Part shown: positions 10,410 to 63,961 of the stretch, piece by piece
Layout of the letters: each line of letters begins with the position of its first letter
Position numbering within the stretch: position 1 is the first letter of the stretch
IMG/VR virus record: IMGVR_UViG_3300037418_002332
Strand: one strand, 5' to 3'
Length of the DNA stretch: 64,000 bases
DNA from: a virus
Taxonomy: Duplodnaviria > Caudoviricetes
Program-made: the position numbers and the translations under genes
The notes under the pieces: model-generated
The model's database searches: none
What the model saw: only the letters and a program-made list of their open reading frames with translations
Told to the model about the DNA's origin: nothing

Positions 10410-11942
10410 ATGTCTTCCTCCTCTAATGCGCCTGTGAAGTCTACTCCTGAGCAAGAAGCCTACATGAATTTCTTCCTCGATCCCACCGAGAAGCGTTCCG
10501 GTGTTGTGATCGCCGTTGCCGGTTCAGGCAAAACCACTACCATTCTTTCCCCTCTCGATGACAAGCGTCTCGCCGGCAAGACCGTTGCGATGATCGCATT
10601 CAACAAGTCAATCGCCGGTGAGATCAAGGAAAAGCTCGCGAAGCGCGGCATCCCTTCGAACCGTGTTGAAGCCGGTACTTGCCACTCCTTCGGTCTTCGT
10701 GCTTATTCTGACGGCAACGGTCGTCCTCAGGTTGAAGGCAACAAGGTCTTCAAAATCACCGAAGATTACTTCGCGAATCATGGTGAGCTTCCTTTCGTGA
10801 TGAAGCCGATGGTTCGTAAGTTGGTTTCGATGGGTAAGCAGAACCTTGCCGGAATCGCCTTTCAGTTCAATGATATCGCAAAGTGGTGCGATTTTATCTA
10901 TCACTACGATATCAATACTTCCGATGCGATTATGGATGAGGAAATCGCCAAGGTTGCGATCGAAGTTCTCCGTATCTCGAACAATCAGCGGAAGGTCATC
11001 GACTTCGACGATATGATCTATCTTCCTATCCTCCAGAACCTGAAGTTTCAGAAATATGACTATGTCGTGATCGATGAAGCTCAAGATACCAATCCTGCCC
11101 GTCGTGAAATGGCGAAGCGTATGTTGGACCCTGAGACTGGTCGCTTGATGGCTGTTGGTGACGACAAGCAGGCGATCTACGGTTTCACTGGTGCTGGTGC
11201 TGATTCTCTGGAGCAGATCAAGAGGGATTTCGGCGCCACCGAAATGTCGCTGACCTACTGCTTCCGTTCCGGCAAGAAGATCGTTGAGTTCGCTAAGCAG
11301 TGGAATGAGAAGATTCAGCCTGCTCCGAACGCGATCGACGGCGAAGTGTCGAACCTTGAGATGGAGAAGTTCTACGCCGAGGAACTCACGGCCGAAAAGG
11401 TTATGCTTTGCCGTAACACCAAGCCTCTGATTGAGGTTGCCTTCACTCTGATCCGTAAGGGCATCCCGGCTTATGTTGAGGGACGCGATATCGGTGAGGG
11501 CCTGAAGAAGCTGGCCACCCGCTGGAAAATCAAGCGTATCGACCAGCTGATCGACAAGCTGGAGGCTTTCAAGGCTCGTGAGCTCAAGAAGGCTCGTGAC
11601 AAGAATGATGATAGCAAGGTCCAGTTCGTTGAGGATCAGGTTGCTACGCTGATGGTTATCATCGACCGATGCCAGAATGCTAAGCGTCATCTTATCGATG
11701 ATGTGGTCGCTGAGATCAATATCCTTTTCCGGGATACGGATGAAGGTCAGCGTCCCGCTTGCTTCACCCTCTCGACGATCCATAAGTCGAAGGGTCGCGA
11801 GTGGAATACGGTTTACTGGCTGGACCGTCTTGGTACCCTTCCTTCGAAGTATGCTAAGCAGGCCTGGCAGCTTCAGCAGGAAAGCAACCTGTGCTACGTC
11901 GCGGCAACCCGCGCGAAGCAGAAGCTGATCGAGGTTGCGTAA
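10410..11942 (+). CDS. UvrD/Rep-family SF1 helicase
   Basis: AVAGSGKTTT, IDEAQD, VGDDKQAIYGF, CFRS, TIHKSKGREW, YVAATRAK. Confidence 0.93.
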   Translation: MSSSSNAPVKSTPEQEAYMNFFLDPTEKRSGVVIAVAGSGKTTTILSPLDDKRLAGKTVAMIAFNKSIAGEIKEKLAKRGIPSNRVEAGTCHSFGLRAYSDGNGRPQVEGNKVFKITEDYFANHGELPFVMKPMVRKLVSMGKQNLAGIAFQFNDIAKWCDFIYHYDINTSDAIMDEEIAKVAIEVLRISNNQRKVIDFDDMIYLPILQNLKFQKYDYVVIDEAQDTNPARREMAKRMLDPETGRLMAVGDDKQAIYGFTGAGADSLEQIKRDFGATEMSLTYCFRSGKKIVEFAKQWNEKIQPAPNAIDGEVSNLEMEKFYAEELTAEKVMLCRNTKPLIEVAFTLIRKGIPAYVEGRDIGEGLKKLATRWKIKRIDQLIDKLEAFKARELKKARDKNDDSKVQFVEDQVATLMVIIDRCQNAKRHLIDDVVAEINILFRDTDEGQRPACFTLSTIHKSKGREWNTVYWLDRLGTLPSKYAKQAWQLQQESNLCYVAATRAKQKLIEVA

Positions 11943-61152: not shown

Positions 61153-61575
61153 ATGACACCAGTGCTGTACATTCTGATGCGTTCCGATCTGGATTCAATG
61201 AATCCTGGTAAGGCTATGGCGCAAGCTTCACATGCTGCCAACGCTATGGTTGCCAAGTTCCATGATCTGGATAAGAAGAATGAACTGACCGACGATGAGA
61301 AGGCTTTGTTTTACACGTGGCAGAGTTCCACTCCACAAGGCTTTGGCACTGCTATCGTTCTGGATGCTCTGAATGAAGAAGGCATCAACGATATCATTTT
61401 CGACGCAACTGTGAAGCATAAAAACAACGATTTTTTCGCAGATATTATTAATGATCCTACTTATCCTGTTAGAGACGGTGCTGTAACTCACTATATATCA
61501 GTGAATACATGCGGCTATGTTTTTGCTAATACGGAAAAGTGGAAGCCGAACAAGAAATATTCACTGCACAAATAA
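61153..61575 (+). CDS. PTH2-like peptidyl-tRNA hydrolase
   Basis: YILMRSDL.SMNPGKAMAQASHA. Confidence 0.75.
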   Translation: MTPVLYILMRSDLDSMNPGKAMAQASHAANAMVAKFHDLDKKNELTDDEKALFYTWQSSTPQGFGTAIVLDALNEEGINDIIFDATVKHKNNDFFADIINDPTYPVRDGAVTHYISVNTCGYVFANTEKWKPNKKYSLHK

Positions 61576-62238: not shown

Positions 62239-62458
62239 GTTATTAGTACTTTACTTCTTGAAATTTAAGATTTATATTGATTCTACGATTAATTTGAGGA
62301 AACGGAAAATGATTCCTTGGATTTACTGGGATAAGGAAACCAATTCGTTGAATTGGACGTTATTGTCACCGTGGGCACCAACGCAAGATGTATGGTGCGC
62401 TGTGATAATGACTGAATTGCTTCTTTTGGAAGCATTCTTCCGTCACTAAGAAATTTAT

Positions 62459-62541
62459 GTGCTCGTGGGCTTAGGGAAACGGCACACTCAGGGGACTTAA
62501 AATCCTTGCCTTTGTGGGTTCGAGTCCCACCGAGCATACCA
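62459..62541 (+). tRNA. tRNA-Leu(TAA)
   Basis: gtgctcg/cgagcat, loop ctTAAaa, T-arm, ACCA. Confidence 0.8.
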
Positions 62542-62861: not shown

Positions 62862-62944
62862 GGATCGGTGACCCGAGTGGCGAAGGGCGCGGGCTTTTAA
62901 TCCGCTATACAACACCGTGGGTTCGAGTCCCACCCGATTCACCA
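62862..62944 (+). tRNA. tRNA-Lys(TTT) with 11-nt variable region
   Basis: gcggg-ctTTTaa-tccgc; T-arm; ACCA. Confidence 0.8.
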
Positions 62945-62974: not shown

Positions 62975-63003
62975 TTTACTTTTTGAATCGTTGAAATTAT
63001 ACT
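62975..63003 (+). promoter_or_regulatory. sigma70-like early promoter
   Basis: TTTACT-N17-TATACT. Confidence 0.7.
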
Positions 63004-63091: not shown

Positions 63092-63165
63092 GACCATATT
63101 GCCGTCAGGGAAGGCTGTGCGCTGTCTACGCATAAAGGCGGGTTCGAGTCCCGTTATGGTCGCCA
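63092..63165 (+). tRNA. tRNA-Asp(GTC)
   Basis: gaccata/tatggtc; loop ctGTCta; GCCA. Confidence 0.8.
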
Positions 63166-63221
63166 TATTGGATCAATCAGTAATTCGCAGTAGCAACTGT
63201 GTTTGGTCGGTCCTAATCCTT

Positions 63222-63311
63222 TGCGGGATTGAGAAGTCAGGTCTATCTCCCCGGTCTCATAAGCCGGTGCACCGAAAGTGCTCAGTGGTTCAAATCCACT
63301 TCCCGCAACCA
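63222..63311 (+). tRNA. tRNA-Met(CAT), fMet-like, with extra variable arm
   Basis: ccggt-ctCATaa-gccgg; T-loop ttcaaat; ACCA. Confidence 0.8.
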
Positions 63312-63346
63312 TTTCGATTGGAGTTATGAACCAATCAATGAAATAT

Positions 63347-63429
63347 TGGAGTGTGACTGAAAGGTAAAGTGCCCGGCTGTTAACCGGAGGCCCCATGTGG
63401 AGCAGGATCGTTACCTGCCACTCCAGCCA
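63347..63429 (+). tRNA. tRNA-Asn(GTT), atypical
   Basis: tggagtg/cactcca; loop ctGTTaa; T-loop atcgtta. Confidence 0.7.
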
Positions 63430-63441
63430 ATTCTATAATTT

Positions 63442-63499
63442 GGGCTCACGCTAGGACGCATCCCGGGAATAAGGGGTTCGAATCCCCATGAGTCCACCA
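63442..63499 (+). ncRNA. 58-nt tRNA-like RNA without anticodon loop
   Basis: gggctca/tgagtcc acceptor, gggg-ttcgaat-cccc T-arm, ACCA. Confidence 0.65.
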
Positions 63500-63515
63500 A
63501 TTTGAAGTGTTATAT

Positions 63516-63593
63516 TCCGGTGAGGCGAGCAAGGTGCACGCAGCTGACTGTTAATCAGATTTCAGGTAGGTTCGATTCCTATCTCCGGAGCCA
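63516..63593 (+). tRNA. tRNA-Asn(GTT)
   Basis: loop ctGTTaa; T-loop ttcgatt; GCCA. Confidence 0.8.
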
Positions 63594-63597
63594 ATTT

Positions 63598-63674
63598 ACT
63601 GCGATCTGCTAATGGACGAGGCGATCTGGTTCTCAGCCAGGGAAATGCGGGTTCGAGTCCCGTTCGCAGTACCA
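63598..63674 (+). tRNA. tRNA-Glu(CTC)
   Basis: actgcga/tcgcagt; tctgg-ttCTCag-ccagg; ACCA. Confidence 0.82.
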
Positions 63675-63695: not shown

Positions 63696-63724
63696 TTTAC
63701 TTATCTGTAACAATCCAATATAAT
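63696..63724 (+). promoter_or_regulatory. sigma70-like early promoter
   Basis: TTTACT-N17-TATAAT. Confidence 0.75.
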
Positions 63725-63914: not shown

Positions 63915-63961
63915 AATATCACTTCACTGCCTCGTTAGGAAAGAGGCAGTGAAGTGATATT
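63915..63961. repeat. perfect 19-bp inverted repeat
   Basis: aatatcacttcactgcctc / gaggcagtgaagtgatatt with 9-nt loop. Confidence 0.9.

Follow-up and report, generated by a model that had tools for sequence, protein, structure and literature searches.

A 58-nt tRNA-Ala-like gene without an anticodon loop in the tRNA island of a T4-like phage, and short elements of the same type in other phage tRNA arrays

What use might a phage have for a tRNA-like gene that leaves no room for an anticodon? The question is raised by a 58-nt element on the plus strand at 63442..63499 of a 64,000-nt stretch of DNA from a virus of the Caudoviricetes (IMG/VR record IMGVR_UViG_3300037418_002332; this whole stretch is "the window" below), where it stands inside an array of tRNA genes. 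We examined the anatomy of the element, its alanine-type acceptor end, its counterparts in other phages (given here by L numbers) and its genomic setting, and we judge the chances to be about even that it is a functional, non-decoding mimic derived from tRNA-Ala, chargeable with alanine and belonging to a class of such short elements, here called minis, that recurs among phages. This judgement is drawn from sequence comparison and is weighed against its rivals in the last section.

An alanine-type tRNA-like gene without an anticodon loop

The gene consists of 55 nt plus an encoded CCA, as found both by reading the sequence and by our own scan, and its acceptor and T arm are those of a tRNA. 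The acceptor 5' strand GGGCUCA (63442..63448; G1, G2, G3, C4 and so on) forms seven of seven pairs, counted by position and including G3:U70, with the 3' strand UGAGUCC (63489-63495, carrying U70), and the 3' end (63489..63499) is completed by A73 at 63496 and CCA at 63497-63499. The T arm, AGGGG/UUCGAAU/CCCCA (63472..63488), has a canonical loop and a stem of four G-C pairs plus an A49.A65 mismatch (the scan scored the acceptor 7/7 and the T stem 4/5), and it aligns locally with the T-arm portion of Rfam models for tmRNA and tRNA-like RNAs. The interior between acceptor and T stem is 23 nt long (63449-63471). It holds a D-loop remnant, CGCUAGGACGCA (63449..63460), with GG at 63454-63455 and a possible D stem of at most a 2-bp stub (G9-C18 and C10-G17, enclosing UAGGAC), followed in place of the anticodon arm by an 8-nt perfect palindrome, UCCCGGGA (63461..63468), whose stem strands abut without a loop, so that the element has no 7-nt anticodon loop. 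The first-pass annotation had described a 58-nt tRNA-like RNA that lacks an anticodon loop and retains the acceptor stem, T arm and ACCA, a description that sequence reading, ARAGORN and Rfam uphold, although the A49.A65 mismatch had been overlooked. Both the 2-bp D stub and the tcc-cg-gga arm that it reported are present in the sequence, the latter as part of the palindrome (TCCCGGGA, 63461-63468).

We took as canonical a tRNA with a four-arm cloverleaf, a 7-nt anticodon loop and a score above the RF00005 gathering threshold of 29 bits, and found that the element falls outside this definition: ARAGORN called six tRNAs around it and left the element itself uncalled, Rfam RF00005 gave no match to it at E<=10 either in 5.5 kb or in an 83-nt slice, and just 23 nt run from acceptor to T stem. 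The best whole-length Rfam match of the element alone was to mascRNA, at a non-significant 14.3 bits (E 0.84). Membership of the tmRNA family, for which RF00023 or the permuted RF04321 would have to score at least 47 bits, was ruled out, with local T-arm matches of 8.1 and 7.9 bits, respectively, and no tmRNA call from ARAGORN. A background scan of 1.4 Mb of other loci returned 409 normal-length tRNA-likes and three other elements that were short only, none of the three with a CCA end; the window element exceeds chance expectation.

The alanine identity set, G1-C72, G2-C71, G3:U70, A73 and the 3' CCA, can be read directly from the sequence. This identity had escaped the first-pass annotation, and it yields a concrete prediction, namely charging by alanyl-tRNA synthetase (AlaRS) without an anticodon. 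The same GGGCUCA/UGAGUCC acceptor stem occurs in identical form in more than 120 tRNA-Ala genes of metagenomes among the matches listed, all of them normal genes of 70-74 nt, so that the scan speaks to such genes and says nothing on minis in metagenomes. Bona fide phage tRNA-Ala(UGC) genes likewise have this acceptor stem and the GGGGUUCGAAUCCCC T arm of the window element. A canonical phage tRNA-Ala(UGC) such as L051:4959-5029 shares with the element the acceptor, G3:U70, A73, the T arm and a D-loop-type GG, whereas the element has neither anticodon loop nor D stem, measures 55 nt rather than 71-76 and fails the ARAGORN and Rfam tRNA tests. In a global alignment to real tRNA-Ala genes (L170, L071), the interior lined up with the D loop, with the 3' strand of the D stem, with position 26 and with the first part of the anticodon stem, and the D-stem 5' strand (about 8 nt) and the anticodon loop were missing. 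Judged by this alignment, the element is derived from tRNA-Ala, and its palindrome arises because the two anticodon-stem strands abut. Origin by a single deletion was ruled out, as at least two separate deletions divide the element from any full-length tRNA-Ala (71-73 nt). A stand-alone 70-nt element on a high-GC 1-kb contig (L164:832-901) combines the acceptor stem of the window mini with its T-arm core (GGGGTTCGAATCCCC); the interior there is irregular and an anticodon arm is not recognisable.

Minis in other phage tRNA arrays

Viral contigs were screened with a pattern that combines a GGGC...GTCCACCA acceptor, a T loop and a short spacer. Class members were defined as elements of 53-62 nt with a perfect 7-bp acceptor that includes G3:U70, with A73, an encoded CCA, a 5-bp T stem and a canonical T loop, and further by a GG-bearing D-loop remnant, a perfect palindrome of at least 6 nt ending 0-4 nt before the T stem, and a place in a phage tRNA array. 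The alanine pattern gave 121 matches, mostly ordinary tRNAs with an internal GGGC, and among them 16 loci (13 distinct sequences) measured 53-62 nt with a 7/7 acceptor, none of the 16 being called by ARAGORN; a stricter filter left 12 loci. A G3:C70 control pattern, which differs at position 70 alone, gave 120 matches and two short-only elements, with L333 alone counted as a real mini on inspection, and by eye nearly all of the uncalled control matches were 3' tRNA halves of att-site type. When the alanine pattern was run on prokaryote genomes, one per species, seven of 119 matches were short only, about one to three of which read as real and the rest as att-like tRNA fragments. As far as these sequence patterns go, the class is a recurrent one in phage tRNA arrays.

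The minis lie 1-7 nt from at least one adjacent tRNA, in arrays of up to 33 ARAGORN-called tRNAs. A canonical tRNA-Ala(UGC) is present in the same array in at least 7 of 12 families (L190, L213, L216, L259, L274, L282, L294), indicating that the minis are extra genes and not a decayed sole alanine tRNA. Two of these phages, L294 and L282, are T4-like and distantly related to the window phage, with 47-54% amino-acid identity in polymerase and helicase genes. The window copy agrees with the class in length, acceptor, A73, CCA, T loop, GG, palindrome and array setting, and its T stem has 4 bp plus an A.A opposition, where L282 has U.U. It is 76% identical to the L240/L420 mini (63% in the interior) and 53-67% identical to unrelated minis (38-57% in the interior); because about 20 positions are fixed by the search pattern, unrelated minis share 53-75% overall and 31-61% of the interior. 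Class members may have independent origins from tRNA-Ala.

Conservation could be compared with that of neighbouring genes in family A (L213, L274, L294), whose minis have overall identities of 89-97% and interior identities of 81-100%. When the tRNAs that these phages have in common are compared in the same pairs, their median identities are 72-84%, and the mini is the better conserved in 6 of 11, 13 of 14 and 7 of 8 cases, in a setting where neighbours are rearranged and spacers are not alignable. The sole acceptor difference within this family is compensatory (A5:U68 against U5:A68), and in family B (L209/L278, L190 and the cultured phages DSS3P8 and V10) G5:C68 stands against C5:G68 and G7:C66 against G7:U66, so that pair 5:68 takes four Watson-Crick types across 15 members. 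Pairs were counted by position in a script, since a MAFFT alignment misplaced the 5' acceptor strand. All 15 members carry GG at positions 11-19 (element positions 13-14 in the window), which in family B lies within a AGCUGGGA-type D loop typical of tRNA-Ala, with a D stem that is short or missing.

A second shared trait is the palindrome. Seven sequence families have a perfect palindrome of 6-16 nt that ends 0-4 nt before the T stem (3 nt in the window), reading CCCGGG in the window and in L240, where it extends to 16 nt, and otherwise CGCGCG, GTGCAC or TGTACA, TCTAGA, AGCGCT, AACGTT and ACTAGT. A single hexamer palindrome anywhere in the interior is unremarkable (shuffle P 0.2-0.45); that the whole set should arise by chance at a fixed position, at roughly 5/64 per family, is very unlikely. 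An anticodon stem minus its loop is the simplest origin for it. The gain from cofolding two copies as a dimer exceeded that of interior shuffles for L240, L274/L294, L220 and L259 only, and not for the window copy.

Among cultured phages, Roseobacter phage DSS3P8 has a 62-nt class member (KT870145.1:11362-11423) that is unannotated and sits 5 nt upstream of an 84-nt gene annotated as tRNA-Ala. This 84-nt gene (L564:1130-1213; KT870145.1:11429-11512) has the anticodon CGC, yet also C3:G70, G73 and a long variable arm; it thus joins a serine-type body to an alanine anticodon, beside an RNA of alanine identity that has no anticodon, and it is deleted in Ruegeria phage vB_RpoS-V10. The V10 mini (L565:301-373; MH015255.1, about 11489-11561) bears an 11-nt tandem duplication (TCGATTCCCGT) in the T arm. 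It has the palindrome TGTGCACA where DSS3P8 has TGTACA, a palindromic hexamer outlasting substitution with its register moved by one base. Like phage tRNAs in general, the class is accessory and patchy in its distribution.

Exact and degenerate searches of viral contigs for the window sequence returned nothing or full-length tRNA-Ala only, and a CCCGGG-type search found L240/L420 and ordinary tRNAs and nothing else. When the family A and C minis were compared with GenBank phages by BLAST, the only matches were of their T arms to ordinary tRNAs, and in the literature we found no description of such elements.

Other unusual tRNA-like genes turned up alongside. Family A phages have a second conserved short tRNA-like (on the minus strand of L213, at position 2169 on the reverse complement, and at L294:12863-12923), which is 58-59 nt long with acceptor GTACCAT/ATGGTAC, A3:U70 and an internal 4-bp stem that varies in a compensatory manner (UCCC/GGGA versus UCCU/AGGA). 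Non-alanine minis were seen in viral contigs L271, L334, L361 and L413, and in L183, L232 and L272; the types include a tandem 53-nt pair lying 135 nt apart (GCGGGTG...CGCCCGC, no CCA; e.g. L334:349-404 and 484-539) and a 60-nt element with a full D arm and no anticodon arm (GGGCGAT...ATTGCCC). Two families of full-length tRNA-Ala(UGC), one in L186, L198, L217, L230 and L288 and the other in L212, L219, L242 and L243, are uncalled by ARAGORN; they have non-canonical D regions together with a G3:U70 acceptor and a normal anticodon arm.

The tRNA island of the window phage and its relatives

The window phage is T4-like, encoding a family B DNA polymerase, a UvsX-type recombinase, a gp41-type helicase, topoisomerase II and ribonucleotide reductase. 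Its tRNA island is adjoined by genes for a SpoU methylase, a Nudix enzyme, the peptidyl-tRNA hydrolase PTH2 (61153-61575, 1.9 kb upstream of the mini) and DNA ligase. The mini is flanked on the plus strand by a tRNA-Asn(GUU) with a long variable arm (63347..63429), which ends 12 nt before it, and by a second tRNA-Asn(GUU) (63516..63593; orthologue at 8148-8222 in L175), which starts 16 nt after it. A promoter-like site, TTTACT-17-TATACT (62975..63003, plus strand), heads a run of Asp, Met-like, Asn-long, mini, Asn and Glu(CUC), and motifs of the type TTTACT-N17-TATAAT recur at 62250 and 63696 and, by eye, near 8258-8290 in L175. No terminator-like site was found within the run at 63092-63674. 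With a promoter-like site at 62975, no terminator-like site in the run and the next promoter-like site at 63696, transcription of the mini within the run is very likely.

Several island tRNAs are oddly shaped: Lys(UUU) (62862-62944) has a variable region of ~10 nt, Met(CAU) (63222-63311) measures 87-90 nt with a long variable arm and a weak tRNA-Sec match (24.6 bits), and the second Asn(GUU) (63516-63593) has a U6.U67 mismatch. At 62459-62541 lies an 80-nt tRNA-like whose acceptor pairs 7/7, whose D region is irregular and whose loop, CUUAAAA, gives the anticodon UAA; it scores 25-27 bits, under the Rfam gathering score, and is uncalled by ARAGORN. It is kept in relatives at ~55% identity (L174:11557-11639, L175:6281-6363, L176:11558-11640), across which changes on both T-stem strands preserve pairing.

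The exact element is found in a second assembly of the window phage, L053 from a JGI soil sample, which is 99.92% identical over 6.25 kb and has the identical element at L053:5692-5749; three Logan contigs have the same gene spacing as the window and L053. In L053 the tRNA island runs past the window end and holds 24 ARAGORN tRNAs, none of them tRNA-Ala. Homologues of an upstream 117-aa open reading frame were confined to near-identical copies of the window phage. Since the window sequence is represented by near-identical copies alone, selection on this lineage's copy is not measurable. All five differences between the window and L053 over the 6.25 kb lie in the 9-nt loop (63934-63942, against L053:6184-6192) of a 19-bp inverted repeat (about 63915-63961), where GTTAGGAAA is replaced by TTTCCTAAC, its reverse complement; one assembly has the hairpin inverted relative to the other, reflecting either a real invertible segment or assembly ambiguity.

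The nearest distinct relatives, L174-L176, have about 55% amino-acid identity to the window phage in PTH2 and share the order lysin, ligase, SpoU, PTH2 and tRNA island (CUA tRNA, the 80-nt tRNA-like, Lys, Asp, Asn-long and Asn). Their two tRNA-Asn genes lie 7 nt apart with nothing between them (Asn-long is at 8056-8140 in L175). An intact tRNA at this site in relatives was the scenario that the first-pass annotation had set against its own idea; in L174-L176 the site is empty, and by this comparison the element is not the product of a recent deletion in a conserved tRNA there. It is either a lineage-specific gain or was lost in the relatives. Synteny around PTH2 was scanned in the first 24 of 49 IMG/VR loci, most of which were without nearby tRNAs, and the more distant PTH2 relatives had no minis.

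Possible function and rival explanations

If the element works as we propose, the phage promoter near 62975 would drive its transcription along with that of five tRNAs, RNase P would cut at G1, and 3' trimming would end at the encoded CCA; an acceptor/T-arm minihelix is the minimal RNase P substrate. Acceptor and T arm would then stack as a minihelix, with the GG of the D-loop remnant docking on the T loop. AlaRS recognises the acceptor helix by G3:U70/A73 and does not read the anticodon, as is established for minihelices, and for this reason the host enzyme would be predicted to charge the mini with alanine. Having no anticodon, the mini cannot decode. It would most likely serve instead as a mimic of the tRNA acceptor end and elbow, a plentiful competitor substrate or sink that would occupy host enzymes or defence toxins directed at tRNA 3' ends or at tRNA-Ala; alternatively, it may be an alanine carrier outside normal decoding. 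Minihelices serve as aminoacylation substrates (PMC4695843, PMC11392972), full-length phage tRNAs are the only ones known to date to rescue or evade in the face of tRNA-centred defences (e.g. PMC11555353), and Cas12a3 cleaves tRNA tails (PMC12851939). Given this current picture of tRNA-targeting immunity (PMC11555353, PMC12851939), competition for acceptor-end enzymes or defence toxins would be the most economical idea. The first-pass annotation had suggested a chargeable minihelix-like mimic acting as a decoy for EF-Tu, RelA or a sensor; the part that stands is an anticodon-less gene of minihelix type in a tRNA operon, with a plausibly chargeable end, while the EF-Tu, RelA and sensor targets are not supported. 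The RelA option is unlikely because RelA activation requires a cognate anticodon in the A site.

We place the element among the non-decoding tRNA-like RNAs. Francklyn and Schimmel reportedly worked in 1989 with synthetic minihelix-Ala and microhelix-Ala, in which, as in the mini, a G3:U70 acceptor is stacked on a T arm; this suffices for alanylation, and the mini is for that reason predicted to be chargeable. Those were laboratory constructs of about 35 nt, whereas the mini occurs naturally as a gene and has in addition a 23-nt linker containing a D-loop remnant and a palindrome. The tRNA-like domain of tmRNA (RF00023), which AlaRS charges without reading an anticodon, resembles the mini in its G3:U70 acceptor, T arm, stemless D loop and missing anticodon, but the mini, a single 58-nt piece, lacks helix 2, pseudoknots, a tag reading frame and any mRNA-like domain. 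Stable RNAs C and D of phage T4 (species 1 and 2), whose function is unknown, are like the mini non-decoding, tRNA-like, CCA-ended and placed in a T4-type tRNA cluster; unlike it they measure about 120-140 nt, bear no sequence relation to it and have no reported alanine identity. Finally, mascRNA (RF01684) and the YrlA tRNA-like domain (PMC4201824) are also small, tRNA-shaped, non-decoding and handled by tRNA processing enzymes, although mascRNA is eukaryotic, YrlA is bound by Ro60, and neither has alanine identity or a location in a tRNA array.

Several observations weigh against a functional, chargeable mimic. The exact element is known solely in near-identical copies, it is absent from the syntenic site of its nearest relatives L174-L176, and its only possible close kin, L240/L420, has a bulged acceptor. 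The window T stem contains the A49.A65 mismatch (U49.U65 in L282), and ViennaRNA predicts a rod-like fold at -22.0 kcal/mol, in which AUCCC pairs with the T-stem 5' strand, against -18.6 for the best tRNA-like fold, so that the probability of the T stem is about 0.01; 9 of the 11 other members tested favour the tRNA-like fold, with T-stem probabilities of 0.63-1.0. Relative to L175:8056-8140 and L176:13435-13519, the tRNA-Asn-long of L174 (13575-13656) is short of 4 nt (CCGG) in the anticodon-stem 3' strand and is no longer called by ARAGORN, an instance of strain-level tRNA decay by small deletion, and the tRNAs of the window island score 34-45 bits on the Rfam tRNA model compared to 56-66 for their orthologues in relatives (L175). 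The class is patchy and some of its members are damaged (the 11-nt T-arm duplication in V10, the bulged acceptor of L240, a 6/7 acceptor in L194), four cultured relatives of DSS3P8 have no mini and full-length tRNA-Ala genes only, and short tRNA-likes of non-alanine type also occur in phage arrays. In addition, G3:U70, A73 and CCA were set by the search pattern, the enrichment hangs on one control pattern, and the demand for a 7/7 acceptor biases toward seeing compensation, with imperfect members (L194, L240, V10) in existence.

Much of this would be expected of a decaying remnant, whether of a redundant tRNA-Ala or of a formerly functional mini, from which small deletions removed the D stem and the anticodon loop and which is perhaps still transcribed, an explanation we regard as plausible though less likely. 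It would accommodate the two or more deletions relative to a 71-73 nt tRNA-Ala, the T-stem mismatch, a minimum-free-energy fold that destroys the T arm, the empty syntenic site, the V10 duplication, the 4-nt deletion in L174 and the low scores of the island tRNAs. Decay accounts less well for an intact acceptor, T loop, discriminator and CCA around an interior reshaped by several events, for an architecture that recurs in many phages keeping a normal tRNA-Ala and that in family A is better conserved than neighbouring tRNAs, or for a palindrome beside the T stem in seven families, which random decay does not lead one to expect. We think it improbable that the element is a message-less tmRNA-like domain, which after alanylation would bind SmpB and EF-Tu, enter stalled ribosomes and accept the nascent chain, either poisoning trans-translation or, with the phage peptidyl-tRNA hydrolase (61153-61575), freeing ribosomes without a tag. 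The element does have the parts of the tmRNA domain (G3:U70, a T arm and a stemless D loop bearing GG) and likewise no anticodon, the PTH2 gene lies nearby, and RF00023 matches the family A mini end to end at 16.8-25.3 bits (gathering score 47). That match comes from acceptor and T arm only, leaving the tmRNA D-loop motif unaligned, the window copy matches in the T arm alone (8.1 bits), and no equivalent of helix 2a can close within one molecule.

A role in processing, in which the mini would be kept solely as a structural spacer or RNase P site for the release of the neighbouring tRNAs, has a similarly slim chance: within one operon the mini has tRNAs at distances of 12 and 16 nt, but these are RNase P substrates themselves and are processed in relatives from a 7-nt spacer, and the recurrence of G3:U70/A73/CCA, GG and palindrome across the class would be left unexplained. 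Least credible to us is an element that acts as DNA, its 6-16 bp palindrome being a site for protein binding or cleavage (e.g. by a homing or restriction-type endonuclease) in a tRNA-derived scaffold. The palindromes differ in sequence between families and keep symmetry and position, and without a loop they cannot close as an RNA hairpin, which would suit such a site; the compensatory acceptor-stem changes point instead to RNA structure, and no associated endonuclease gene was identified.

For the alanine-chargeable mimic, a wider proposal can be made, which we hold tentatively: that phages with large tRNA arrays encode an undescribed natural family of alanine-chargeable minihelices under selection, of which the window element is one functional member. 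Such RNAs, built from the upper half of tRNA-Ala, a remnant of the D loop and a palindromic linker, would not decode; they could be decoys for defences directed at tRNA 3' ends or tRNA-Ala, or message-less tmRNA-like rescuers or poisons, and they may work as dimers formed through the palindrome. Standard tRNA finders skip the minis, which makes them invisible in current annotations (as with the unannotated DSS3P8 copy), and the host of DSS3P8 is the model bacterium Ruegeria pomeroyi DSS-3, so the idea is directly testable. Laboratory work has used minihelix-Ala for more than 30 years as a model of anticodon-independent tRNA recognition and in thinking about the origin of tRNA. A natural minihelix-Ala recurring in phages, if true, would show that biology uses this minimal substrate, and it would bring a new type of participant into the arms race over tRNA in which phages and bacterial defences are engaged.

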